From ANME-2 cluster archaeon (GTDB lineage Archaea; Halobacteriota; Methanosarcinia; Methanosarcinales; Methanocomedenaceae), in contig JAHYIS010000003.1 of the NCBI GenBank assembly GCA_019429385.1, forward strand, positions 34,825 to 98,824: a DNA stretch of 64,000 nt, read 5' to 3'. This document shows, one piece after another, positions 10,522-56,114 of the stretch (the stretch's first letter is position 1; every line of letters begins with the position of its first letter). The notes under the pieces are model-generated. The model ran no database searches, was not told the DNA's origin, and worked only from the letters and a program-made list of their open reading frames with translations. Position numbers and translations under genes: made by a program.

Positions 10522-10894
10522 AGGTGAGGAAAATGACCTGTTGTGATATAAAACTGGCTGTTACCTTTTGCTGTGTATCTTTTCCAGCTCAGGGTCCTGG
10601 AAAAGATCCTGTACGAGGAATGATATGGCAATAGTATGGGACGATACGTCAAAGCGAAACCTCCTGGATATCGGATCAGCCCTCAATCCCAGATGGGGCA
10701 GGCCACTGAGTGCCGGTGTGGACCTGTTCGAGAACATGTTCCTGGATACTGACCCGGGTTCAGGTGGACAGATCAACACAGGCTGCTCAAAAAAGTGGTT
10801 CCAGCGGTTTCGCAGGGATCCCAGCGGTATCCATCTGGTGATCGGCAAACAGCGGGGTGGTATAAATCTGCCATGTGCTTCTTCCTGGCCCGGG

Positions 10895-11008
10895 CCACCC
10901 TCAGGCGGCCCATCTATGTCATCACTGCAGCACCATTAATTCAAACTGGTGGTTCGGTTGGACCAGCCATCCACCTTCAGGCGGCCAATCTATGCCATCA
11001 CGGCAGCA
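10895..11008. repeat. 38-bp imperfect direct repeat (10895-10932 and 10971-11008, 4 mismatches)
   Basis: CCACCCTCAGGCGGCCCATCTATGTCATCACTGCAGCA versus CCACCTTCAGGCGGCCAATCTATGCCATCACGGCAGCA. Spacing is 76 bp. Confidence 0.8.
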
Positions 11009-11096
11009 GATGGGGTCATGCCAGAAGTTGAGGTGTTCGAGGATATCCTACAGGTCCCAAAATGAAGCGTCAAAGTGATTGATTCTCCTTGCCAAA

Positions 11097-12083
11097 CTAC
11101 TGAACTTTCAAATGCTCTTTTCCTGCCTGTGTCGTCTTCCTACCCTGGGGAGTACGTTGAATAAAACCGATCTGGATCAGATACGGTTCATATACATCTT
11201 CAATAGTCCTGACCTCTTCCCCCACTGAAATGGCAATGGTTTTCAGGCCCACGGGTCCACCTTCGAAATCATCTGTTATTATACTAAGTATACGCCTGTC
11301 AAGTTCATCCAGGCCCAGCTTGTCTATACCCAGCATAGTCAGCGCATCATCAGCAACTTCCTGAGTTATCGTTCCATCAGCCCTAACAAGTGCAAAATCC
11401 CTTGCACGCCTCAGTAACCTGTTAACAATTCTGGGCGTTCCACGGCCGCGTTTAGCAATTTCTACAGTCCCATCTCGGGTTATGGGGATACGCAGGATCG
11501 AAGCACTTCGATGCACTACCTCCACAAGTTCCCTAATAGTGTAATGATTTAGCCTGAAAGTAATGCCAAATCGATCCCTGAGCGGTGAACTCAGCAGTCC
11601 TATCTTTGTGGTTGCACCAATAAGAGTAAAATGTTCCAGGTTGAGCTTTATTGACCTGGCACTTGCCCCCTCCCCTATCATCACATCTATTTCCATATCC
11701 TCCATAGCAGGATACAAAATCTCTTCAATAATTGAATTCATGCGATGGATCTCATCAATAAAGAGTACATCTCCTTTTTTAAGTGAAGTAAGTATTGCGG
11801 CAAGGTCTCCGGCCTTTTCCAGGATAGGTCCTGAAGTACTTTTTATACTGACTCCCATTTCATGTGCGATAATATTTGCCAGAGTGGTTTTTCCAAGACC
11901 AGGTGGTCCTGAAAATAAGATGTGGTCAAGTGGTTCACCCCGCTTTTTTGAGGCTTCAATAGCTATTTTTATTGATTCCTTTATGATATTTTGACCTATG
12001 AACTCATCAAGTTTTATGGGGCGGATGGTTGAATCTTCTGTTTCATGATCCTGCTCTGAAGGAGAGACTATTCTTTCTTCCAT
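11097..12083 (-). CDS. ruvB: Holliday junction branch-migration ATPase RuvB (bacterial type)
   Basis: [11 protein letters not shown], Walker [12 protein letters not shown], Walker [22 protein letters not shown], and C-terminal winged helix [10 protein letters not shown]...[17 protein letters not shown]. Confidence 0.95.
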
Positions 12084-12085
12084 AT

Positions 12086-12676
12086 TTACTCTTTAACTTC
12101 TTTTAATTTCAACAGTGCTGCCTTAATTAATACTTCGATCGATGGTGCTTCAAAATCCGCAGATACAGCATCTACAGCTTCCCTGGACTCTCTTTGTTGA
12201 AAACCCAATGATACAAGAGCACTTACTGCATCATAATTGATATTACTGGTGCTGGTGGGAACAAATCCTTTCATTTTCTTTTTCATCTTATCCTTTAATT
12301 CCAGTATCAATCTCTTAGCATTTTTCTTGCCAATTCCTGAAATATTTGTAAGGACTTTTTCATCCTCATTGAGGATCGCACTGGCAAAATCTTCTAATGT
12401 AATTTCAGAAAGGATCTTCAAAGCTATCTGGGGCCCGACTCCTGAAACGCTAATTATTAATTTGAACATCTCAAGTTCGGTTGAGTTCATGAACCCGTAG
12501 AGATTGAGCGCATCCTCCCTGACATTCAGATGCGTATAAAGTGTTACGTGTGATTGTTTCGTAAGTTCCTGTAATGCCGGTTGCGGAACATTTACATGAT
12601 ATCCTATTCCTCCGACATCAATAACAACAAAACCTTCACCACATTGCGCAATTTCGCCACGTAAATGTGAAATCAT
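12086..12676 (-). CDS. ruvA: Holliday junction DNA-binding protein RuvA
   Basis: MISHLRGEI...GYHV OB-fold N-terminus. Two HhH motifs ([13 protein letters not shown]; [16 protein letters not shown]). C-terminal domain III. Confidence 0.9.
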
Positions 12677-12680
12677 ATCA

Positions 12681-13151
12681 TTATCTCATTATATGTATAT
12701 GACATAAAGCAATCGAAAGACCATCAGCCGCATCATCAGGTCTGGGAAGTTCATCCAGACCCAGAAGCCTTGTTATCATCTCCTGCATCTGTCGTTTATC
12801 AGCACGTCCTGTACCTGTTATCGCCTGCTTGATTTGAGCCGGTGTATATTCGAATAAAGGTATTTGTTTTTGTTGTGCAGCAAGTAATATCACCCCTCTT
12901 GCTTCACTTACCCTCATTGCAGACGTGACATTTTTATTGAAAAAGAGTTTTTCAATAGCGACAATTTGAGGATTGTACTTTTCAAAAAGCGTTTTGATCT
13001 CATTATAGATCTCCAGTAGGCGCTCTGATGTTTGTTTTTCAGCAGAAGTTCGAATACATCCATAGCTTACAGGAATGATCTTTTCTTCTGATTTTTGTAT
13101 TACTCCAAAACCAACGGTTGCAAGTCCCGGATCGATTCCGATAATGATCAT
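12681..13151 (-). CDS. ruvC: crossover junction endodeoxyribonuclease RuvC
   Basis: ORF 12681..13202. Family-typical start MIIIGIDPG at 13151. Motifs: AIEKLFF, EYTPAQIKQAITGTGRADKRQ, DDAADGLSIALCH. Confidence 0.9.
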   Translation of the reverse strand: MIIIGIDPGLATVGFGVIQKSEEKIIPVSYGCIRTSAEKQTSERLLEIYNEIKTLFEKYNPQIVAIEKLFFNKNVTSAMRVSEARGVILLAAQQKQIPLFEYTPAQIKQAITGTGRADKRQMQEMITRLLGLDELPRPDDAADGLSIALCHIHIMR

Positions 13152-13171
13152 GGTATTTTTCTCGGCGATTA

Positions 13172-13636
13172 TTAGCTTTCGTATTTTTCTATATAATCCC
13201 AAATTTCTTGATCGGTTTTTGGCATATTACCTTCAAAAAATGTCTTTATCCATTGTAAATACCCAATTCCACTTGGACTTCTGTGTTGCTTCACAAGTTT
13301 GATTAAAAGTCTAACACATGAAATAATCTCCCCATAAGTAAAACTCCTTTCTCCCTCAATTCTGTTAAGCATCAATTGACCTTTCACAGATTGTGAGATG
13401 TTATACGCAAGCGAACCTTTCTTTTGACCATCGAAATCTTTTTTGAGCTTATTGTACGCAGATAACACTGTTTTATCTTTAAGAGCGGGATTTTCCTGCC
13501 ACATAAATAAAACTACGGATTCTATACTGACAAATATTTCATGATAATCGGCTATATCCTCAATAGCCACTTTTCCGTTACCGTTTTCGACCAATTCTGC
13601 CAATTGTTGATTTACATGAACCCTTGTGTTCTCCAT
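13172..13636 (-). CDS. hypothetical protein
   Basis: 154-aa ORF with no recognised domain. It lies 20 nt upstream of ruvC on the same strand. Confidence 0.5.
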   Translation of the reverse strand: MENTRVHVNQQLAELVENGNGKVAIEDIADYHEIFVSIESVVLFMWQENPALKDKTVLSAYNKLKKDFDGQKKGSLAYNISQSVKGQLMLNRIEGERSFTYGEIISCVRLLIKLVKQHRSPSGIGYLQWIKTFFEGNMPKTDQEIWDYIEKYES

Positions 13637-13828
13637 ATATTTTCACCGCCCTTGTGTTCTATAAATAGATTTGTACTTACGCCGCCACTTACCGATGCAT
13701 TGCGCCTTCCATCAATTTATCGCCTCGGTCTGATTTCTTGAAGCTATCATTTTTCTGATGAGCTCTCAGGTATGCATATTGGAAGAATTTCATATGCATA
13801 CATTATTTTCCGGATAATCGTCCCATTT

Positions 13829-14398
13829 TCACTTTATGTGGGCTAACCTCTGATTAATTTCATCAAGGTCAAAGTATTCAGGATCAAAATCATAATCCAG
13901 CCAATCCACCATTTCTTCATGCTCGGGATGTTGCGGATCTTTGAGGATTTCAAGGAGTTCATCATATCCATAAGGACCGCCACAATCTTCCGGAGGACAG
14001 TCACGTTTACCCTTAAGGCAGACCGGATAGTGTTTATCTACTTCCAGAGGGAGGATTTTTTCAACCAGGATTATGTGATACCAGGAATCCCCAAAATCGT
14101 ATTCGTAGATGAATTTAGTATTTTCTTCAAAGACCACCTGGCTTAATGTTATTGTTCTTTCATCAATCACATCAAACATATCAGCCGGGTCAGGTTCACC
14201 ATATATCATTCCATCTATGATAAACTGATGAAGGTGATAACCGTCCCACCCCATCAATTCCTGAATAATGACATGAAGTTTAGATAATGTAATATCGCTT
14301 TTAACCTGTATTCGTCTCCAGATGGGTGGTTTTATCTCATCAAGTGTTACTTTTATCTGATAGATATGAATATCTTCATTCCGTTTCTTTTTAGGCAT
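13829..14398 (-). CDS. pRiA4b ORF-3-like (MM3350-like) domain protein
   Basis: IYQIKVTLDEIKPPIWRRIQV...LSKLHVIIQELMGWDGYHLHQF...YEYDFGDSWYH is the family signature as I recall it. C-terminal CPPEDCGG. Confidence 0.75.
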   Translation of the reverse strand: MPKKKRNEDIHIYQIKVTLDEIKPPIWRRIQVKSDITLSKLHVIIQELMGWDGYHLHQFIIDGMIYGEPDPADMFDVIDERTITLSQVVFEENTKFIYEYDFGDSWYHIILVEKILPLEVDKHYPVCLKGKRDCPPEDCGGPYGYDELLEILKDPQHPEHEEMVDWLDYDFDPEYFDLDEINQRLAHIK

Positions 14399-14541
14399 GA
14401 CAATCACCAATTTCTTATGGAATAATGTCCTGTTAATCGGTTATTAGATTTTCGATTAATTTGAGGAGATTGACTGCATACGAAACCTGAATAAGAAATG
14501 TTTATGTTGTAAAAAATTAATTAATTTCCACTCTCATAAAT

Positions 14542-17500
14542 ATGATCGCACTACATGGAACCTGGAAACCGTCAGAAAGAATAGACACACTGGGAGATTT
14601 CTTCATATGGGGTGAGTTATCCACAGCTTCCACCATCAAACGCAGAGGGCGCCCTCCAAAGATCTCTGCCAGTACACCCCGGCCTCATCCATTTCAGGCC
14701 CCAAACGAGGACCTGAACCGGGTGATAGCATTCCTGGAAAATGGCAATGACAGCATAATCACTAACAGGACATATCAGGATAATGTATTGTTATCGCTTC
14801 CTTCATTTTCAAAATCTCCCCAGGCATCACCTGATTTACTAAGAGATGATGGCAGTGAGGAGACAGATGAGCCAGTGGGTCTAATACCATGGAAAGTACA
14901 TGGTTTAAGCATTCTTCCCCAGGACGCAGTAACATTACTCAACTCACTCTCAGGAGCATGGATCGAATATGACAACACTGTCATTGGAACCGATCTGAGG
15001 TTCTGGAGTAATGTCTCAAAATTTGCACTTGAACTGTTATCAAACCAGCATTTTTTTCCTGGCATGGTTATTTCTGAAGAAAGTAAGATATTTTCCAGAT
15101 GGCAGTATATGCTCAATGATGAGGAAGACAGGATGCGCTTTTCAATCCTTGCAAACTCAATGCCTCCTGTTTGCAGATCACTCCTCCAGAATACTATTCC
15201 AAATACCCGGGAAGCTCTCATATCGGATTTTCTCAATAGTAGCATTAACGGATGTATCAAAAACTGGATGTCAATCTCAGAGATCAAATCAAAAAAGCCC
15301 GGTCTCTCTGAAATATGGTTACGATCCCTGACAACCGGAGAACCGATACAAGTCAATAAGTCAGTTCTTAACAACCTTTCAAAAGGTTTACAATCATGGG
15401 AAGCCCCGATACATGAAATTGAAAAATCCGGATTTCGCACATCGTTCCGGCTTGAACCCCCCATTGAGGAGGAAACAGACATCTGGAATATGCGCTATTT
15501 TCTTCAGGCTTCGGATGACCCAAGCCTGCTTGTGCCTGCTGAAAAAGTCTGGAAAGAATCAAAAGACACACTTAATTTCCTTAACCGTAAATTCGACCAA
15601 CCCCAGGAAAAACTTCTTGCCGATCTTGGGAAAGCCTCCAGGCTATACCCTCCTATCGAGGCCAGTCTCCATTTAGCAAGACCCACTGCCGCCCGGCTTA
15701 GCACGCAGCAGGCTTATTCATTTTTAAAAGAAGTTGTGCCCTTATTTTCAGAGAGCGGATTCGGGGTCCTTATTCCACCATGGTGGAAAAAAGGGGGATC
15801 AAGTTCGAAGCTTGGTGTAACATTAAATGTGAAACAAAAGAAAGACCCTAAAACCAGCAAAGGATTGTTCGGTTTTAACTCAATTATCCAGTACGACTGG
15901 CAGATCGCCATTGGCGGTGAGCAGTTAAGTGAAGAGGAATTTGAGAATCTTGTAAACCTGAAAGAGCCGCTTGTACGCATCAGGGGAGAATGGGTAGAGG
16001 TCAAAAATGAAGATATTGCAGCTGCTATTAAATTCTTCAAATCCGGAAAATCAGGTGAGATGAAACTGGACGAAGCCCTCAGGCTGAGCGCCGGACTTGG
16101 AGAATCGGAAACAGGCCTCCCAGTTGGCGGATTTAATGCAACCGGAGTGCTATCCGAGCTATTTGAGCGTTTATCAGGGAGAACCGGAATAGAAGATTTA
16201 ACACAGCCCGGTGATTTTGTTGGTGAGCTTCGACCTTATCAGGTCAGGGGCTTCTCGTGGCTTGCGTTTTTGCGGGAGTACGGACTGGGAGCATGCCTTG
16301 CAGATGATATGGGACTTGGTAAGACGATCCAGCTTCTTGCCCTGCTCATAAAGGATAAAGAAGAAGGCATCAATAAACCAACCCTCCTGATATGTCCCAC
16401 TTCCGTAGTTGCTAACTGGTATCGGGAAGCGCAAAAATTTGCACCATCCCTCAAGGTTATGATACATCACGGCACAGCCCGGCTGAAGAAAAATGAATTC
16501 CATTCCGAAGCTGTCAAATTCGACCTGGTCATCAGCACCTATGCCCTTGCTTACCGGGATGAGGATATGTTCGAAAATGTGGATTGGAGCGGGGTTGTGC
16601 TGGATGAAGCGCAGAACATTAAGAACCGGTTCACAAAGCAATCCCAGGCTGTCCGTAAAATCAAATCAGACTATCGAGTGGCCCTTACAGGCACACCTGT
16701 TGAGAACCGTTTATCAGAACTCTGGTCTATTATGGAGTTTTTAAATCCGGGCTACCTCGGCTCGGCAGAAGGTTTCAGGAGAGGTTTTGCGATGCCTATT
16801 GAACGCTATAATGACAAAGAAGCAGGCATGAAGCTTCGAAGTATTGTTTCACCATTCATCCTTCGCCGCCTCAAGACAGACCCTGCCATCATAACAGACC
16901 TGCCTGATAAAATTGAGACAAAGGTATACTGCAACCTTACAAAAGAGCAGGCTACACTCTACAAGGCTGTTGTTAAAGATGTGCTTGAGAGAATCGAAAG
17001 CTCAGAAGGAATTGAAAGAAAAGGGATCGTGTTATCAGCACTTACAAGATTAAAACAGGTATGCAATCACCCGGCGCAGTACCTGGATGACGGTTCGGTA
17101 CTCCCGGGACGCTCAGGCAAGTTGAATCGTATCACTGAGATGATGGAAGAGGTGATAGCTGAAGATGATGCTGCGCTTGTCTTCACCCAGTTTTCCGTGA
17201 TGGGAAACATGCTTAAAACGCATCTCCAGCATGTCTTTGGCCAGGAGGTACTCTTTTTGCATGGCGGAGTGTCCCAGAAACAGCGGGACCATATGGTTAT
17301 GAGATTTTCAGAAAAGGGCGGACCCCGGATATTCATTCTTTCACTCAAAGCTGGCGGGGTGGGTCTGAACCTCACCCGTGCCAGTCACGTGTTCCACTTT
17401 GACCGGTGGTGGAACCCGGCCGTTGAGAACCAGGCAACAGACCGTGCTTTCAGGATCGGGCAAACCAAAAATGTGCAGGTTCACAAGTTTGTGTGCGAAG

Positions 17501-17655
17501 GGACTCTTGAAGAGAGGATAGATGAGATGATAGAGGATAAGAAAGCACTTGCCGAGAATGTTGTTGGGACGGGCGAGGGCTGGCTGACAGAGATGTCGAC
17601 CGAGCAGTTGAAGGGTTTATTTGCATTGAGGCAAGAATCAGTGATGGATGAATAA
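14542..17655 (+). CDS. SNF2-family helicase with a long N-terminal SNF2-associated region
   Basis: 1037 aa. Helicase core from ~aa 560: LRPYQVRGFSWL, LADDMGLGKT, VLDEAQNIKN, LTGTPVENRL, SLKAGGVGLNLT, WWNPAVENQATDRAFRIGQ. Confidence 0.9.
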   Translation: MIALHGTWKPSERIDTLGDFFIWGELSTASTIKRRGRPPKISASTPRPHPFQAPNEDLNRVIAFLENGNDSIITNRTYQDNVLLSLPSFSKSPQASPDLLRDDGSEETDEPVGLIPWKVHGLSILPQDAVTLLNSLSGAWIEYDNTVIGTDLRFWSNVSKFALELLSNQHFFPGMVISEESKIFSRWQYMLNDEEDRMRFSILANSMPPVCRSLLQNTIPNTREALISDFLNSSINGCIKNWMSISEIKSKKPGLSEIWLRSLTTGEPIQVNKSVLNNLSKGLQSWEAPIHEIEKSGFRTSFRLEPPIEEETDIWNMRYFLQASDDPSLLVPAEKVWKESKDTLNFLNRKFDQPQEKLLADLGKASRLYPPIEASLHLARPTAARLSTQQAYSFLKEVVPLFSESGFGVLIPPWWKKGGSSSKLGVTLNVKQKKDPKTSKGLFGFNSIIQYDWQIAIGGEQLSEEEFENLVNLKEPLVRIRGEWVEVKNEDIAAAIKFFKSGKSGEMKLDEALRLSAGLGESETGLPVGGFNATGVLSELFERLSGRTGIEDLTQPGDFVGELRPYQVRGFSWLAFLREYGLGACLADDMGLGKTIQLLALLIKDKEEGINKPTLLICPTSVVANWYREAQKFAPSLKVMIHHGTARLKKNEFHSEAVKFDLVISTYALAYRDEDMFENVDWSGVVLDEAQNIKNRFTKQSQAVRKIKSDYRVALTGTPVENRLSELWSIMEFLNPGYLGSAEGFRRGFAMPIERYNDKEAGMKLRSIVSPFILRRLKTDPAIITDLPDKIETKVYCNLTKEQATLYKAVVKDVLERIESSEGIERKGIVLSALTRLKQVCNHPAQYLDDGSVLPGRSGKLNRITEMMEEVIAEDDAALVFTQFSVMGNMLKTHLQHVFGQEVLFLHGGVSQKQRDHMVMRFSEKGGPRIFILSLKAGGVGLNLTRASHVFHFDRWWNPAVENQATDRAFRIGQTKNVQVHKFVCEGTLEERIDEMIEDKKALAENVVGTGEGWLTEMSTEQLKGLFALRQESVMDE

Positions 17656-17678
17656 TGGAATATACGGATAGTTGAATC

Positions 17679-18563
17679 ATGGGCAGGTATGAAGACTTCT
17701 GGGGCGGCTATACTCCTTCAAAGCCAATACAGGTGGAAGGCGGTATCAAAGCCAAAAGCAAGAAGGGCAGTATCGGAGATACCTGGTGGTCAAAACGTTG
17801 GGTGAGTGTCCTGGAATCCTTTGGCTGGAGCAACCGGCTTGAGCGGGGAAGACGATATGCCAGAAAAGGCCAGGTGCTTGATTTTGAACTTTCGGCCGGA
17901 AAAGTCGAAGCAAAAGTCCAGGGCTCGGTCCGGAAACCTTATTCAGTTACTATTGAGATTAAACCGATTACTGAAAAATCATGGGATTATGTCATAGAAG
18001 AGATGTCTCAAAAGGCAATATTCGCAGCAAAACTACTTGCAGGCGAGATGCCACATGATATTGAAGAAGCCTTTGAAGCAGAAGATATATCGCTGTTCCC
18101 TGAAAAATCGAAAGATATAAAGACGCACTGTTCATGTCCGGATAGTGCAAATCCCTGTAAACATATTGCTGCACTGTATTATATTTTGGCTGAAGAGTTT
18201 GACCGTGACCCTTTCATGATCTTTGAATTGCGTGGCCGGACAAAGGATGAAATTATTTCATCTCTTCGCCAGAAGCGCACTGACGAAAGCCATCCTGAAC
18301 CAGAAGAAATTTTTGATGTTGCGCAAGTAAAGGAAGTTGCTTTGTCCATGGATGATTTCTGGGAAGGGGGGGATAGCGAATCATTTTCAGTTAATATCTC
18401 GCTACCTGATGTATCGGCAGCAATTATCAAACGGCTGGGAACACCGGAATTCTGGGATAGCAAGGTCGATTTTGTAGAGAAAATGGGCGGGTATTATGAA
18501 GAGATTAGCAGGCGCGCTATTGTGACTGCTTATTGTGAACAGACAAAAACGAAAAAGAAATGA
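17679..18563 (+). CDS. SWIM zinc-finger protein
   Basis: CSCPDSANPCKHIAALYYIL matches the CxCxnCxH SWIM motif. The N-terminal WWSKRW...RLERGRRYARKGQV is typical of the SNF2-partner family. 23 nt downstream of the SNF2 gene. Confidence 0.85.
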   Translation: MGRYEDFWGGYTPSKPIQVEGGIKAKSKKGSIGDTWWSKRWVSVLESFGWSNRLERGRRYARKGQVLDFELSAGKVEAKVQGSVRKPYSVTIEIKPITEKSWDYVIEEMSQKAIFAAKLLAGEMPHDIEEAFEAEDISLFPEKSKDIKTHCSCPDSANPCKHIAALYYILAEEFDRDPFMIFELRGRTKDEIISSLRQKRTDESHPEPEEIFDVAQVKEVALSMDDFWEGGDSESFSVNISLPDVSAAIIKRLGTPEFWDSKVDFVEKMGGYYEEISRRAIVTAYCEQTKTKKK

Positions 18564-18798
18564 AACAATGAGTCTGATCAATACTCCAGGATAAGCCTGG
18601 GAGACTATGAACTGGAGGGTGTAGACGATATCGGTATTGATGACTTTAGCCAGGAAGAGTTCCTGGGTGACGAGGACGACCTGCGGGGTGACTTCCCGGG
18701 AGATGCAGATGGGCTGCTGGGAGCCTATGCCGGCAATGTGGACCGCTACGTGTTCTGAAGCGGCGAAGTGATGAACTGGGTGGCCATTCTTCAAGCGC

Positions 18799-18978
18799 GA
18801 CTCCATGCTGGTCAAACTTCACATGCTTGATCGTCAGGTTTCCAATCTCGCTGATCCTGGCGCCGTTCACATATAAACTGGCTATCAATGCTCTGTCTCT
18901 GGGATGTTCGCAGGCATTGATCATATTCTCGATCTCTTCCCCACTCTGCAGGTCTTCAGGAAGCTTATGTGAATGATT
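18799..18978 (-). pseudogene. tyrosine recombinase/integrase fragment (decayed)
   Basis: Minus-strand frame reads ...PEDLQSGEEIENMINACEHPRDRALIASLYVNGARISEIGNLTIKHVKFDQHGV, the integrase core-domain signature. A stop lies immediately upstream, similarity is lost downstream, and no catalytic R..HxxR..Y region is recognisable. Confidence 0.6.
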
Positions 18979-19243
18979 TCAAGACGATATTTTTATCCAC
19001 TCTATAGTTTCATCCATATCCAGCCATCTCAGTTAATATCTTCAATTCAATCAAGTGTTTCAATACTCTTGCTATCTTCAAACCTTCTGAAAAACAAAAA
19101 CTCTCAAACTAAAAAATCAGTTGTTTATTTTCCTCAGTGATGCTGGAATTTCTGATTCTCCCTTCAACAGATTTAAGATTCTGTTCAAGGTTGTACAACA
19201 TGTGTTATCACATTCCATTCTAATCTCTTAACCACTCAGGAAG

Positions 19244-19306
19244 CGAAGTGAAAGTATTCGAAGTGAAAGTATTCGAAAAAAGGTGAGAATCGAACGTGAA
19301 ATTTTA
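19244..19306. repeat. 15-17-bp tandem repeats abutting the tRNA-Leu 3' end (2 perfect CGAAGTGAAAGTATT plus 2 degenerate)
   Basis: 19244-19258 and 19259-19273 are identical. 19274-19290 (CGAAAAAAGGTGAGAAT) and 19291-19306 (CGAACGTGAAATTTTA) are degenerate. Confidence 0.75.
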
Positions 19307-19391
19307 TGCGGGGGAAGGGATTCGAACCCTTGAACTCCTTCGAGAATAGATCTTGAGTCTATCACCTTTGGCCTGGCTTGGTTACCCCCGC
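19307..19391 (-). tRNA. tRNA-Leu (anticodon CAA)
   Basis: Manual fold of the reverse complement: acceptor GCGGGGG/CCCCCGC, D arm ACC..GGT, anticodon stem ATAGA/TCTAT with loop CTCAAGA, long variable arm, T arm AAGGG-TTCGAAT-CCCTT, discriminator A. Confidence 0.9.
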
Positions 19392-19407
19392 ACAGGGGAA
19401 ATGGGAA

Positions 19408-19740
19408 TTACCTGTCCTGGAGCGTCTCAACCTCTTCAACGATCCTGCGACCGGCCGCAATCTCATCGATACTGTGAATAACAGCGCCCATATCCTCTAT
19501 GATCTCTTTGATCTGTTCATAGTTCAGGTCATCGCCTTCAATGGTCACCTTAATATTCTCGGTCTGCTGGTCAACTTCATACAGGCTCAGGTTTACGCCG
19601 CTTATGTTTTCCAGTTCACTCAATGCCGTAGCATATTCAAGTATCAATGGATGATGAGGTTTCAAAACATCCAGAACCAATCGTCTAATTCCTACCACGT
19701 GATTTATCCATCCTGATGTGTGTACTCTCAATACAAACAA
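19408..19740 (-). CDS. DUF211-like conserved archaeal protein
   Basis: [20 protein letters not shown]...[31 protein letters not shown]. The true start may be GTG at 19698. Confidence 0.7.
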
Positions 19741-19835
19741 TAACTTATAACTCTTACTACATTCAAATCATATCATCATATACCTCATAAATACGTATAT
19801 ATGGTGAAAAACAAAAGAATATCTGGAGTGGTACT

Positions 19836-20237
19836 ATGAATACTTCACGATATATTTTCTTATTAACAATAGGTATTGCCGTGATCAGCATTGGAACGGC
19901 AGATGCCCTGACAAGATCAGGGGAATGGGAAGCCGCTTCTCTGGTATCCGACAATCGAATACCTGCCGGGTCTAATATCACTGAAGACCATGAGATCAGG
20001 CTGCCGCAGGGAAATGCCGGTCCAGTGAGAGTGATCGTCTGACTGCTGTACAGAACAGCTCCCCAGGCTTTTATCGATGAAACTTTTGGCAGTGCAGCCG
20101 AGAACGTACCTCTGGTGGAAATGGAAAAAGGAGAATTTACCGTTCATGAAGAAGCCACAGGCATACCCGGATTTGGAATGGTACCATCTTTCATCATGAC
20201 AGGAATTGTGTTTATTCTGTTCGGTAGACGGGATTGA
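19836..20237 (+). pseudogene. small secreted PGF-CTERM protein interrupted by one in-frame TGA (20040-20042)
   Basis: N-terminal signal peptide MNTSRYIFLLTIGIAVISIGTADA. After the TGA the same frame stays open for 64 codons and ends ...EEATGIPGFGMVPSFIMTGIVFILFGRRD*, a canonical PGF-CTERM tripartite signal. Confidence 0.6.
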
Positions 20238-20405
20238 TTTCAATTCCTCCTCCCTATTTTTCAGGATACAGAGTTTAACGCTACCTGTTCAGGTTAATCC
20301 GAACGATATTCCGGCTTTGCTTAATGAGGTCAATTTTATTGGAAAGAGCACCATCACCATCCGTTTCAGAAACCCTTAAGTCAATATCAACTCAACTGAT
20401 TGCTA

Positions 20406-23150
20406 ATGAAATTCCAGATACTGGATGCCGATTATACCTACGACGACCTTGAAAACCCGGTCATCCGCCTCTTCGGCCGTGATGATGCAGGCCAAAGTGT
20501 TTGTTGCTTCGTGCCCGGATTCAAACCCTACTTCTTCCTGAAACCACACCCCAAACACAATCCTGATGAACTGGCAGAAAAGATCAAAACCACCTTCAAT
20601 GAGCATGTCACAAACGTGCAGGTCACCCCGCGATTTGAACCTGTAGGTTACTTTAAAGCACCTATTCCCATGCTCAAGGTCATTCTCAACGACCCGAAAG
20701 GCGTGCCTGCCATACGGGACGATGTGCTTCAATTACCCGGCGTTGCCAGCATATATGAGACCGACATACTGTTCCGCAACCGCTTCCTTATCGATTCAGG
20801 TATCGGTGGCATGTCCTGGGTAGAGACCGGCTCCGAACCACTGCAGGGGGACAAGTTCAAAGGTATCAGCCTGATCGGCGTGGATTGCCAGGTCAGGACC
20901 GTGTCAGATACCATAACCCCGCAGGATGTCATCACCAACGCGCCCCTGCGGTACATGGCATTCGACATAGAATGCCTGCCAATGGACGGCGCCATGCCCA
21001 CACCGGACCATAGCCCGATAATCATGATAAGCTGCGCTTTTGAGCCAGCATATAATGGTAAGAGCACCACGGTCCTGGTGGGTAAGGACGCTGACGGGCT
21101 TGAGAGTGATTCCGAGGCGTTCGCTGACGAGATCGGAATGCTTGAACGGTTCTTCGAGATAATCAGGGAATTCGACCCGGATGTATTTGTCGGGTACAAC
21201 TCGAACAGCTTCGACATACCCTATATCGTGGACAGGATCAGTACCCTTGAGAAAGAACGCAAAGTGAAACTACGGCCGGTCATGGGTCGGGACGGCCGTT
21301 CGGTCTACTACCGCAGGATAGGCACCATGACCAGCATAAACATCACCGGTCGGGTAGTGGTTGACGCGCTTCCCATCATAAGGCGGGATTTCAGCCTGAA
21401 GCGCTACACCCTCAGGAACTCTGCGCAGGAATTGCTGGGCAGGGAAAAACTGGATGTCAAACCCTCGGAGATGGAAGAATACTGGCACGACACCGGTGAT
21501 AAGTTCCATTCTTTCGTAGATTATGCCAGGCGCGACTCTGAACTGGCACTGGAACTGGTACTCAGGCTGAGCCTGCTGGACAGGTTCTGGGCACTGTCCA
21601 GGGTCAGCGGTACCCTGGTGCAGGATATCCTCGACGGCGGCCAGACCAATATGGTAGAGAACATTCTCATGAAAGAGTACCGCGCCCATAACAGGGTAAT
21701 GCCCCCAAAACCTGACAACGATATTTCCCAGCAGCGGCACATGATCACCGAAGAACTGAAGGGCGGCGAAGTACTGGACCCGAAAAAGGGGCTACTGGAA
21801 GATGTGGTGATACTGGACTACAAGTCACTCTACCCCACCATCATGATGGCCCATAACCTGTGCTATACCACCGAGATAGTCGACGGGGACCAGGTGCCGG
21901 ACGGGGACTTTGAGACTACTCCCTCGGGCGGCAGGTTCGTATCTGCGCAGGTGCAAAAGGGCATTGTCCCCTCCATCCTGGCAGGACTGCTGCAGCGCAG
22001 GGTCGAGACCAAACAAATGATGAAACATGCATCCGGGGACGAAGCCCGTGCCCTGGATGCCACACAGCTGGCTCTCAAGATATTGCTGAACAGTTACTAT
22101 GGTTATTCAGGTTATACCAGGGCACGACTGTACAGTCTCACAATGGCGAATTCGGTGACCAGTTTTGGCAGGGAGAATATCCTCAATACCAGGGACCTGG
22201 TAGAAAAGCGCATCGATAGCATCTATCTCTCCAACGGTGATGCGTATGTCCAGGAAGAACTCCCCGGGGCAGGACTCAAAACCGATGAGCTGCAAAGGTT
22301 CAACCTGTCCGTGGTCTATGGGGATACGGACAGCGTGTTCGTAAAACTATCCCCTGAAGGCATCTCCCTGGAGGATGCCGGTGCTGTGGGGCAGAAAATT
22401 GCCAGGATCGTATCTGCAAAACTACCTGACCCCATGGAACTGGAATTCGAAAGTTTTGCCAGGCGCTCAATATTCATTGCCAAGAAACGCTATGCAGTAT
22501 GGGTATTTGAACCATCTGCCAGTGGCTGGTCTGACAGTATAAAGGTCAAAGGCATGGAAACGGTCAGGCGGGACTGGTGTGAACTTACCAGCAAGACCCT
22601 GAACAGGGTACTCGAACTGGTATTGAAGGAAGGGAGGGTCGAGGATGCGGTAAGCTATGTACGAGGAGTTATCAACAGTGTGCGCAACATTGACTTTGAA
22701 AAAGACCCTTCGGTCCTGGAAGACCTGACACTCACCCGCAGGTACACCAAGAAGAGCGAGAATTACCAGAACAAACAACCTCATGTCATGGTTATCGAGA
22801 AAATGAAAAAACGGTCCGGTTTTGTGCCGCCCATCGGGGACAGGATCCCCTTTGTCATAATAGCGGGACCGGGACTGCTTGCTGACAAGGCAGAAGATCC
22901 CGAATTTGTGAAAGAGAACAACCTGTCGCTGGATGTTAACTACTACATAAAGAAACAGATACTGCCACCCGTTGAGCGCATCCTGCGTGAGTTTGGAGTG
23001 GATGCATCATTTTTGGATTATGATGAAAAACAAATGGGGCTGGGAGATTTCGGGGGGGGTGGCAGCATTGTGAACGAGCATGTAGCCACACAGGATGACA
23101 TGGGACCAAAAAAAGCGAAAAAAAGCCAGTCAAAACTATTTGATTTTTAA
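20406..23150 (+). CDS. polB: family-B DNA polymerase
   Basis: Exo motifs FDIE, YNSNSFDIPY, YARRDS. Pol motifs LDYKSLYPTIM, KILLNSYYGY, YGDTDSVF. C-terminal PIP-like QSKLFDF. No intein. Confidence 0.95.
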   Translation: MKFQILDADYTYDDLENPVIRLFGRDDAGQSVCCFVPGFKPYFFLKPHPKHNPDELAEKIKTTFNEHVTNVQVTPRFEPVGYFKAPIPMLKVILNDPKGVPAIRDDVLQLPGVASIYETDILFRNRFLIDSGIGGMSWVETGSEPLQGDKFKGISLIGVDCQVRTVSDTITPQDVITNAPLRYMAFDIECLPMDGAMPTPDHSPIIMISCAFEPAYNGKSTTVLVGKDADGLESDSEAFADEIGMLERFFEIIREFDPDVFVGYNSNSFDIPYIVDRISTLEKERKVKLRPVMGRDGRSVYYRRIGTMTSINITGRVVVDALPIIRRDFSLKRYTLRNSAQELLGREKLDVKPSEMEEYWHDTGDKFHSFVDYARRDSELALELVLRLSLLDRFWALSRVSGTLVQDILDGGQTNMVENILMKEYRAHNRVMPPKPDNDISQQRHMITEELKGGEVLDPKKGLLEDVVILDYKSLYPTIMMAHNLCYTTEIVDGDQVPDGDFETTPSGGRFVSAQVQKGIVPSILAGLLQRRVETKQMMKHASGDEARALDATQLALKILLNSYYGYSGYTRARLYSLTMANSVTSFGRENILNTRDLVEKRIDSIYLSNGDAYVQEELPGAGLKTDELQRFNLSVVYGDTDSVFVKLSPEGISLEDAGAVGQKIARIVSAKLPDPMELEFESFARRSIFIAKKRYAVWVFEPSASGWSDSIKVKGMETVRRDWCELTSKTLNRVLELVLKEGRVEDAVSYVRGVINSVRNIDFEKDPSVLEDLTLTRRYTKKSENYQNKQPHVMVIEKMKKRSGFVPPIGDRIPFVIIAGPGLLADKAEDPEFVKENNLSLDVNYYIKKQILPPVERILREFGVDASFLDYDEKQMGLGDFGGGGSIVNEHVATQDDMGPKKAKKSQSKLFDF

Positions 23151-53885: not shown

Positions 53886-54764
53886 ATGACTGCAAACTTT
53901 CTCTGGATATCACTGGTCTTTTTCACCATTGCGTCTGTGCTCCCTCATAAATTCAAGCTGCAACGAATGCCTGTCGGTGCTATCGGATGGATATTCTTTG
54001 CACTTTATTGGGCATTACAGCCTATCTATTACCTGAAAGAAGGCGACATTTCAATGGTACTGCTGATGTTGGTGGTGGCGTTTTTTTGCCTCATAATTGC
54101 ACACCTGATGATAGGTACTTATGTAATGACAAAAAAAGGCATACCACTGGATAATCCAATCGACAGACCAAAGACATTACTGGCTGTTACCACGGTCACT
54201 GCCATAGGGTGTCTGTTCTATTTCCCTTTTGCTCAAATTGAATCTTTGAATCATTTAATCATAAGTACGGTTACCTCGCAGACGTTCTGGCTTTCACAGC
54301 AGGTGGGATTCCCTGTGGAAAGGGCGGATTGGAATATGATCCGGCTCGGAATATACCGGGTCGAGATAATACTGGCATGTACTGCTATCGAAAGTATCGC
54401 CCTGTTCTTCGGCCTCATATTAGGGACAAGAGCAGAAGCCAAGAAGGTTTTGCTGGCATTACTGGCATCCATTCCTGTAATTTATATCCTCAATGTTATC
54501 AGGAACACATTCGTGATAGGAGCTTACGGGTATGAATGGTTCGGGAGCGGGCCCATGATAGTGAACCTGTTTGGCCATGAATATTTCCTGCATGATTCGG
54601 CCAGCTTCTACATAAGCCACCACCTGATAGCCAAAGGCGGGTCAGGTATAGCATTGTTCTTCATTGCCTATGCAGTATTGAAAACTCTCCCCGAACTACT
54701 GGACCTCATCGAGGAAATCTGGCAACTGGTAAAGGTTGACTTGAACCACCTCAGGGGTGGGTAG
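53886..54764 (+). CDS. artA: archaeosortase (ArtA-like)
   Basis: Polytopic membrane protein. Candidate catalytic Cys in ILACTAIES, Arg in LNVIRN, His in ISHHL. Adjacent psd and pssA. Confidence 0.75.
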   Translation: MTANFLWISLVFFTIASVLPHKFKLQRMPVGAIGWIFFALYWALQPIYYLKEGDISMVLLMLVVAFFCLIIAHLMIGTYVMTKKGIPLDNPIDRPKTLLAVTTVTAIGCLFYFPFAQIESLNHLIISTVTSQTFWLSQQVGFPVERADWNMIRLGIYRVEIILACTAIESIALFFGLILGTRAEAKKVLLALLASIPVIYILNVIRNTFVIGAYGYEWFGSGPMIVNLFGHEYFLHDSASFYISHHLIAKGGSGIALFFIAYAVLKTLPELLDLIEEIWQLVKVDLNHLRGG

Positions 54765-54802
54765 GGATTCTTGCCCGCAATACCGGGACACTGATCACGG
54801 GA

Positions 54803-55417
54803 TTGTTCGTCACTGCCCTTGTCCTGGCACTGGCAGCCCTTATATTATCTTCGACCTTGCTGGCCAGGGAATCGGCGCTGGTATTTCTCCTGGATTTTTT
54901 CTTTATCTGGTTCTTCAGGGACCCGGAGCGCATACCCGGAGGAGATGATACTGATGTCGTGTCGCCTGCTGACGGTAGAGTGGTAGATATCCGGGGAACT
55001 ACGGTATGCATTTTCATGAACATACACAACGTGCATGTGAACCGGGCTCCCTTGAGCGGGAAGATAGTGGCAATGAAGCACACGGATGGTGGATACCTGC
55101 CTGCCTTCTGTAAGGATTCACATCGCAACGAGCGTAATTCAACATGCATAGAGTCGGATTTTGGACTGGTCAAAATGGTCCAGATCGCTGGTACGGTTAC
55201 CAGAAGGATTGATTCCTATTTCAACGTGGGCGACACGGTGGTCAGGGGCGAGCGTATCGGTATGATACGATTCGGTAGCCGTGTGGATGTGACACCTCCA
55301 CCAGGGTACAAACTTATGGTCAGAAAGGGGCAAAGAGTACGGGCAGCAGAAACGATTATTGCCAGTAAGATAGACTTTGATGAAAGGGAGGCAGACTGCA
55401 TCCATGCATCAGAATAA
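54803..55417 (+). CDS. psd: archaetidylserine/phosphatidylserine decarboxylase proenzyme (short archaeal type)
   Basis: FFRDPER, SPADG, HNVHVNRAP, and the self-cleavage-type FGSRVD motif. Confidence 0.85.
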   Translation: MFVTALVLALAALILSSTLLARESALVFLLDFFFIWFFRDPERIPGGDDTDVVSPADGRVVDIRGTTVCIFMNIHNVHVNRAPLSGKIVAMKHTDGGYLPAFCKDSHRNERNSTCIESDFGLVKMVQIAGTVTRRIDSYFNVGDTVVRGERIGMIRFGSRVDVTPPPGYKLMVRKGQRVRAAETIIASKIDFDEREADCIHASE

Positions 55418-56114
55418 TGAAAATCCCAGTATTTACAAATTGATACGACTTCCTGACCTGGTGACATTGTTAAATGCGCTGCTCGGCCTGACTGCTATCC
55501 TGATGGTAGTCCAGTCACCCTCCAATGTCCTGCACGCTTCCATTCTCATTGTACTTGCGGTGATTGCCGACGGAGCTGATGGTGCAATTGCCAGGAGACT
55601 GGAATACGGGGTGCTGGGGGAGCACCTGGACTCGCTGGCCGACGTGATATCCTTTGGAATGGCACCTGTTGTGATCGCCTTCGCACTACTGGCACCCCAG
55701 TACCATTACCCAGTATGCATTATAGGGGGTGCATTCCTTGCCAGTGGTATCCTGAGACTGGCCAGGTTTGGTGTTATTGACCAGAAAGGCGGGTTTATCG
55801 GCATGCCTATCACCACATCCGGCCTGATGGTCTCCCTGTATGTGCTGGCTTTCAGTAGCGGAGAAGGACCATTGTTCTCGTACGGTCTGCTGGCTACCAT
55901 GCTGCTTTTATCGGTATTGATGGTAAGCCGGATACGATATCCAAAGGTCAGGGATGCCCGCCTCATTGGAGTGATGACTGTCCTGCTGATACTGATGGTA
56001 ATGTCTTTCTATCTGGGCAGTGCGCCCGGGCTTATGGTTACGGCCCGGGCAAATCTTGTGTTGATAGGGGTGTATATCCTGTCTCCGTTATTGAATTTTA
56101 GGAAAAACCGGTGA
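55404..56114 (+). CDS. pssA: CDP-alcohol phosphatidyltransferase, archaetidylserine synthase-like
   Basis: DGADGAIARRLEYGVLGEHLDSLADVISFG is the CDP-alcohol transferase motif. 14-nt overlap with psd. Confidence 0.85.
   Translation: MHQNNENPSIYKLIRLPDLVTLLNALLGLTAILMVVQSPSNVLHASILIVLAVIADGADGAIARRLEYGVLGEHLDSLADVISFGMAPVVIAFALLAPQYHYPVCIIGGAFLASGILRLARFGVIDQKGGFIGMPITTSGLMVSLYVLAFSSGEGPLFSYGLLATMLLLSVLMVSRIRYPKVRDARLIGVMTVLLILMVMSFYLGSAPGLMVTARANLVLIGVYILSPLLNFRKNR

Follow-up and report, generated by a model that had tools for sequence, protein, structure and literature searches.

Small multiheme c-type cytochromes anchored by a PGF-CTERM signal have been noted in ANME archaea (Chadwick et al. 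2022, PMC9012536). The MccSep/ExtKL protein of Geobacter sulfurreducens is a proven multiheme selenoprotein functioning as a polysulfide reductase (PMC13510729; PDB 9wt8; NF040886). Among solved folds, the one closest to the intact orthologue of the gene analysed here belongs to the Thermochromatium tepidum pentaheme cytochrome c552 (PDB 5ze8), the best match both in structure (Foldseek, E = 1.8e-20, TM 0.62/0.72) and in sequence (phmmer, E = 2e-14). The gene analysed here is located at positions 19836-20237 of the window, which will be used as the term for the whole stretch of 64,000 nucleotides that was analysed. Comparison with related genomes strongly argues that the segment is a pseudogene, the non-functional remainder of a gene for an archaeosortase-anchored pentaheme c-type cytochrome of 454 aa, and we consider this reading highly probable. 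The locus shares with its ANME orthologues the gene order DUF211-cytochrome-PolB, an identical signal peptide, 104 homologous C-terminal residues and a PGF-type tail; it differs from them by the loss of 321 internal codons together with five CxxCH motifs and by a premature TGA, and the window copy cannot bind heme. The features of the locus are the following.

19408..19740, minus strand: DUF211 gene (PF02680, 133 bits), the conserved left neighbour that defines synteny
19741..19835, plus strand: intergenic region before the gene, comprising a TATA-like stretch rich in AT and a ribosome-binding-like site, GGAGTGGT
19836..20042, plus strand: 5' ORF of the remnant, 68 codons plus TGA
19836..19907, plus strand: predicted Sec-type signal peptide MNTSRYIFLLTIGIAVISIGTADA, read from sequence and hydropathy
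19923..19933, plus strand: deletion junction, consisting of one copy of the 11-bp direct repeat GAATGGGAAGC, which encodes E-W-E-A
20040..20042, plus strand: nonsense codon TGA, replacing AGA (Arg390 of the intact protein)
20043..20237, plus strand: in-frame continuation, 64 codons plus TGA, corresponding to residues 391-454 of the intact cytochrome
20166..20234, plus strand: PGF-CTERM-like tail PGFGMVPSFIMTGIVFILFGRRD, recognisable by eye
20400..23150, plus strand: family-B DNA polymerase (PolB), the conserved right neighbour that defines synteny
Contig L081, 6001-7365: intact gene in a conspecific MAG

The ATG at 19836 on the plus strand opens 68 sense codons, which are followed by TGA (20040-20042) and a C; past this stop the frame remains open for 64 further codons up to a second TGA (20235-20237), and its translation includes the peptide FIDETFGSAAENVPLVEMEK. 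Thus, the coordinates, the in-frame TGA, the open continuation and the tail composed of PGF, hydrophobic helix and RRD, all reported in the initial annotation, were found as described. Codons 1-29 of the 5' ORF encode the cytochrome signal peptide and the first residues behind it, codons 30-68 match the orthologue (454 aa) at residues 351-389, and the continuation encodes the anchor tail and, before it, the final strands of the C-terminal beta-sandwich. The predicted signal peptide, with a basic residue, a hydrophobic core (Kyte-Doolittle 2.39) and an A-x-A-like end, is shared without change by the intact conspecific gene, and the first 98 nt of the gene show no difference from L081. The allele is present in a single public record (MBW6517265.1, on a 114.8-kb contig), and an exact look-up of the 68-aa ORF in the assembly index returned no entry. 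In the public record (locus tag K0A89_02030), the 68-aa fragment is annotated as "hypothetical protein" and bears no pseudogene mark.

Searching with the joined 133-aa product yielded neither a real family in NCBIfam and Pfam nor a homologue among 5.8 billion proteins, which, taken by itself, would have pointed to an orphan mini-protein; this candidate was ruled out by the orthologues found through synteny. The word-indexed protein search is insensitive to short queries and missed an orthologue 85% identical; with the 104-aa tail as query it returned only the 68-aa ORF of the window itself, and the orthologues were detected by way of PolB synteny. The closest relatives of PolB place the window in ANME-2a / Candidatus Methanocomedens. 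In ANME-2 isolate B4-08 (L012), a 454-aa ORF with five CxxCH motifs, and with signal peptide and PGF-type tail as in the window, is located between the DUF211 gene and polB; it matches the family Cytochrome_C554 and the ExtKL-like multiheme model NF040886 (69.5 bits, cut-off 250). A protein search with this ORF resulted in 275 homologues, nearly all of 430-500 aa, including a protein (P0003) encoded on contig L081 of an 'ANME-2 cluster archaeon' MAG. The L081 contig is collinear with the window, and the three conspecific MAGs (L081, L085 and L086) share 97-99.6% nucleotide identity with it. All three carry the intact 454-aa gene at the syntenic site between DUF211 and PolB. The intact allele is on record in JARGFX010000007.1 at about 21,387-22,751. 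Two Logan contigs (L082 and L084) provided additional full-length alleles adjoining DUF211. Altogether, a 454-aa pentaheme PGF-CTERM-tailed cytochrome is found at this locus in the three conspecific MAGs and in three more distant ANME-2a assemblies. An intact syntenic orthologue is therefore present in close relatives of the window (L081, L085, L086, L012 and L084), and direct orthologues of 454 aa are MDF1531259.1, MCL7474958.1 and MDW7776117.1.

When P0003 was compared with the window by tblastn, residues 1-36 matched with 91.7% identity and residues 351-454 with 85.6% identity over 104 aa (E = 7e-52), the latter alignment covering both sides of the stop. Since the frame aligns with a full-length orthologue on either side, its continuity across the stop is not due to chance, and the proposal that the two halves form one gene proved correct. 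No other genome with the short architecture was found.

The window gene is shorter than that of L081 by exactly 963 nt, or 321 codons, in frame, and the same gap of 963 bp is observed in comparison with L012. The best-fitting junction may lie at any position within 19923-19934. In the intact gene GAATGGGAAGC occurs twice (L081 6088-6098 and 7051-7061), the first copy encoding EWEA after the signal peptide and the second EWEA at residues 351-354, and it is the 963 bp between the copies that are missing in the window. All five CxxCH heme motifs of the orthologue (residues 42, 86, 119, 170 and 204) are located in the deleted segment, and not a single CxxCH motif is present in the window ORFs; the retained sequence is clearly homologous to members of this multiheme cytochrome family, although their five heme motifs are gone. 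The AlphaFold model of the intact protein (pLDDT 88.9) shows a helical heme domain, a beta-sandwich at approximately residues 264-424 and a C-terminal helix, and according to this predicted structure the last four of the strands, a single helix and the tail are all that is left in the remnant. The supposed mini-protein with a small ectodomain is consequently the deletion product of a much larger cytochrome. An exact scan of JGI metagenome contigs for the deletion junction gave no match.

The second lesion affects a codon that is AGA in all six full-length orthologous loci read from seven assemblies (L081, L085, L086, L012, L082 and L084); over the last 304 nt, L085 and L086 do not differ from L081. 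In the predicted structure the TGA falls in the middle of a beta-strand (residues 385-394), and in an alignment of 70 homologues the respective column contains R, K, V, T, I, S, N or E; both Cys and gaps are absent from it. An exact scan of JGI metagenome contigs for the stop region, in which the variable base was given as N, found no match. Of the explanations considered in the initial annotation, a nonsense mutation agrees well with these data as far as the TGA, which is specific to the window, is concerned; the larger 963-bp deletion had gone unnoticed. The orthologues, proposed there as a check of the stop, have a sense codon at this position, and the further decay named as a sign of a plain pseudogene is present in the form of this deletion, the larger of the two lesions.

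The history we propose would consist of an in-frame 963-bp deletion between the copies of the 11-bp direct repeat, presumably of the microhomology or slippage type, and an independent AGA>TGA nonsense mutation in the remaining part. With the deletion, residues 30-350 are gone; they comprise the five CxxCH sites, the heme domain in its entirety and, of the C-terminal beta-sandwich, the first half. Promoter and signal peptide are intact. At most, a heme-less secreted peptide of 68 aa would be made, and any readthrough product would be a heme-less fragment of 133 aa with a degraded anchor signal. Window positions 19412-19933 differ from L081 at only 2 of 522 positions, and since the upstream region is thus almost unaltered compared to the intact allele, the remnant may still be transcribed.

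All three parts of the C-terminal signal are visible, namely IPGFG (PGF at 20166-20174), the hydrophobic stretch MVPSFIMTGIVFILFG (Kyte-Doolittle 2.29) and RRD. Nevertheless, to call it a textbook PGF-CTERM signal was too strong, as the model TIGR04126 did not match the window tail at E <= 10. With this model, the cut-off of which is 24.5 bits, the conspecific tail on its own reached 15.5 bits and the L012 orthologue 23.6 bits. In the window tail, T>P, V>F, V>M and M>T are derived changes. In the orthologues one polypeptide comprises both the signal peptide and the sorting signal, whereas in the window the TGA separates the two. The archaeosortase and the lipid synthesis genes reported at 53.9-56.1 kb were indeed found:

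53886-54764, plus strand: archaeosortase A (ArtA; TIGR04125, 247 bits, cut-off 75)
54803-55417, plus strand: phosphatidyl/archaetidylserine decarboxylase
55377-56114, plus strand: archaetidylserine synthase-like CDP-alcohol phosphatidyltransferase

Judged from their sequences, the genes at 53886..56114 represent the machinery that would process the intact PGF-CTERM proteins of this genome; for the remnant they are irrelevant.

The 3' part of the remnant is unusually divergent. In the tail (19934-20237), 36 of 304 positions (11.8%) differ from the conspecific MAGs L081, L085 and L086, among which this segment is invariant. For the 424 nt upstream together with the first 98 nt of the gene, only 2-4 of 522 positions differ from these three MAGs (0.4% upstream), and over the next 2.9 kb downstream the differences amount to 44-53 of 2900 (47/2900, or 1.6%, for L081). 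Correspondingly, dS is 0.30 in the tail and 0.02-0.09 in the neighbouring genes. At the protein level 15 residue positions are affected (14 replacements and the stop), which had been taken to indicate relaxed selection; VEMEKGEFTV and PSFIMTG are examples of the variants in the window tail. The reading as relaxed selection was withdrawn, as the dN/dS of the tail against L081 (0.26) is no different from the values obtained when functional alleles of this segment are compared (0.19-0.34); changes polarised to the window branch comprise 12 non-synonymous and 8 synonymous ones, which are small counts. The 3' remnant hence shows no statistical signature of long neutral decay (dN/dS 0.26), so that either the inactivation is recent or the segment was imported, and the excess divergence of the tail is not the result of neutral decay after inactivation. 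By its substitution pattern the tail resembles a stretch taken over from a more divergent allele under constraint, and the position of its left edge near the junction suggests an origin of the deletion in a recombination event with paralogous or foreign DNA. Alternatively, strains may have been mixed in the assembly. No paralogous donor of the tail was found within the window.

Simple decay does not explain why 0 of 98 positions differ in the 5' part and 36 of 304 in the 3' part, and this is the point at which the pseudogene reading may need refinement. Homology-facilitated illegitimate recombination with foreign DNA, a tentative refinement that we regard as possible but less probable than not, would have introduced a divergent ANME-2a patch of approximately 300 bp. 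The right end of the patch would have been joined by homology near the 3' end of the gene and the left end at the wrong copy of the 11-bp repeat, leading to the deletion of 963 bp. In line with this proposal, divergence changes sharply near the junction (0/98, then 36/304, then 47/2900 against L081), and the conspecific MAGs are mutually identical in the tail, the dS of which (0.30) far exceeds the background of 0.02-0.09 at an omega of 0.26. No donor allele was found, however; the first difference in the tail lies 36 nt past the repeat, so that the breakpoint need not coincide with the junction, and the same pattern would result from gene conversion by a paralogue that escaped notice or from an assembly of mixed strains. 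The latter leads to the question of whether the allele is an assembly, consensus or amplification artefact, in which case the real genome would possess the intact 454-aa gene and the gap, the TGA or both would originate from assembly, strain collapsing or a chimera. The allele is derived from a single MAG record, neither lesion has an independent sighting, and the scans of JGI contigs for the junction and the stop region were empty. Moreover, a tail diverged by 11.8% between flanks diverged by 0.4-1.6% is a mosaic as strain mixing can yield, and two other structural differences from the conspecific MAGs are found in the same 10-kb stretch. On the other hand, the flanks are collinear with three conspecific MAGs, and deletions between short direct repeats are a common class of real mutation. 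As the 11-bp repeat is shorter than the k-mers usually employed by assemblers, a false join at GAATGGGAAGC is unlikely, and were the TGA alone erroneous, the deletion would still make the gene a pseudogene. We therefore judge an artefact to be improbable and infer that the assembly reflects the real genome.

The remaining explanations assign a function to the stop codon. Regulated readthrough of the UGA, one of the options of the initial annotation, would turn the locus into a functional gene with a short secreted and a long archaeosortase-anchored form. Since the deletion preserves the reading frame, which is still open downstream, translation of the remnant is formally possible; the frame extends 64 codons past the stop and ends in a PGF-like tail, a C follows the stop, ArtA is encoded in the genome, and promoter and signal peptide are intact. 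Yet the open frame is explained by its homology to residues 391-454 of the intact gene, the stop occurs in no homologue (a sense residue in 70 of 70), and the short architecture in no other genome. Furthermore, both products would lack any heme site and most of the fold, the predicted RNA fold of 20030-20110 is not significant (z = -1.24; 22 of 200 shuffles fold as well), and TIGR04126 gives the window tail no score. To our knowledge, programmed UGA readthrough has not been established in Methanosarcinales. Programmed or leaky readthrough serving a functional gene is thus very improbable, and the regulated form proposed earlier was abandoned. A composite scenario appears only slightly less remote, although still quite improbable: the deletion would have arisen via a divergent ANME-2a patch at the 11-bp microhomology, and the remnant would be expressed, with occasional leakage at UGA-C resulting in a heme-less lipid-anchored surface peptide. 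Least probable of all is that the TGA encodes selenocysteine, the ancestral protein being distantly related to the multiheme selenoprotein ExtKL/MccSep. A faint match to NF040886, the model for the ExtKL (seleno)protein, spans the stop (E = 0.16), and the orthologues score 69-72 bits with this model. But U325 of MccSep (AGHSIPDGU) aligns with AGHSIPTG-S at approximately residue 297 of the ANME protein, that is, about 93 residues upstream of the TGA column and inside the deleted segment. Across the 70 homologues the U325 column holds L, V, I, S, F or T and the TGA column never Cys, and the orthologous codon is AGA. Rfam detected in the window only a tRNA-Leu and no SECIS element, and we are not aware of Sec machinery in Methanosarcinales.

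Additional structural differences are found to the left of the locus. An 8.3-kb segment (10794-19085) is absent from the three conspecific MAGs and contains the following genes:

11097-12083, minus strand: bacterial-type RuvB
12086-12676, minus strand: bacterial-type RuvA
12681-13202, minus strand: bacterial-type RuvC
13829-14410, minus strand: PRiA4_ORF3-like protein
14542-17655, plus strand: SNF2 helicase with DUF3670
17679-18563, plus strand: SWIM zinc-finger protein
18646-18924, minus strand: broken tyrosine-recombinase fragments

The segment looks like a decayed integrated element. A full bacterial RuvABC set (11097-13202) is unusual for an archaeon. Just inside the left end of the insertion, at 10895-11008, there is a direct repeat of 38 nt, the copies of which are 89% identical and 76 nt apart. 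At 19403-19412 a 2.19-kb deletion compared to the conspecific MAGs (L081 3389-5576) has removed a class I/II aminotransferase gene; its junction contains an 8-nt filler, GGAATTAC, and it directly adjoins the gene for tRNA-Leu(CAA) on the minus strand (19306-19392). A perfect tandem duplication of a 15-mer (CGAAGTGAAAGTATT, twice) is located at 19244-19273, just downstream of the tRNA-Leu gene.

In further ANME-2a assemblies DUF211 abuts PolB without a cytochrome gene in between (L002 392-644, L013 5860-6001 and L009 1453-1687); in two of them, L002 and L013, only approximately 40-150 bp separate the sequences that are homologous to the flanks in the window. As the gene is absent from these three loci, it is variable in ANME-2a, and on this comparison of loci the pentaheme cytochrome is a dispensable accessory gene at this site, intact in some lineages, absent in others and, in the window, in the process of being lost. 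Such variability is relevant when cytochrome inventories serve to infer the capacity for extracellular electron transfer. Integration of a foreign patch would, if true, bear witness to natural uptake of DNA and its recombination in uncultured methanotrophic archaea. Apart from this, the finding carries little weight beyond annotation, in which MBW6517265.1 ought to be marked as a fragment of a multiheme cytochrome pseudogene. It also calls for caution, as an ORF split by one stop may conceal a far larger lesion that is revealed only by comparison with orthologues.

The family of approximately 450 aa to which the intact protein belongs (L081 6001-7365 and 70 homologues) is a distant relative of MccSep/ExtKL without Sec or Cys. 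It is widespread in bacteria (anammox bacteria, Zixibacteria and NC10) and Methanosarcinales, and the motif AGH-x-(I/L)-P-T-G is invariant across the alignment of the 70 homologues. A C-terminal anchor tail was observed only in the archaeal members inspected and in one member from Zixiibacteriota, the hydrophobic tail of which lacks the PGF motif.

Compared to MccSep/ExtKL, the intact orthologue is distantly homologous, with five hemes and the shared motif AGH-x-IP-x-G. It differs in that the orthologues remain, with 69-72 bits, far under the cut-off of 250 bits and that Sec and Cys are absent from the family; the TGA of the window is located at another, non-homologous position, and the U325 region is deleted. 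Cytochrome c552 of T. tepidum is a bacterial, periplasmic protein of approximately 21% identity without a PGF-CTERM tail; of the C-terminal domain, no more than the last part is retained in the window. A further comparison is provided by unitary pseudogenes that originate from a deletion between short direct repeats and a nonsense mutation. With these the locus shares the intact syntenic orthologue in conspecific genomes, the two lesions and the dispensability of the gene in sister lineages, whereas it differs by the as yet missing signal of relaxed selection (omega 0.26) and by the unusual divergence of its 3' part. The remnant at 19836-20237 is accordingly an ordinary pseudogene.
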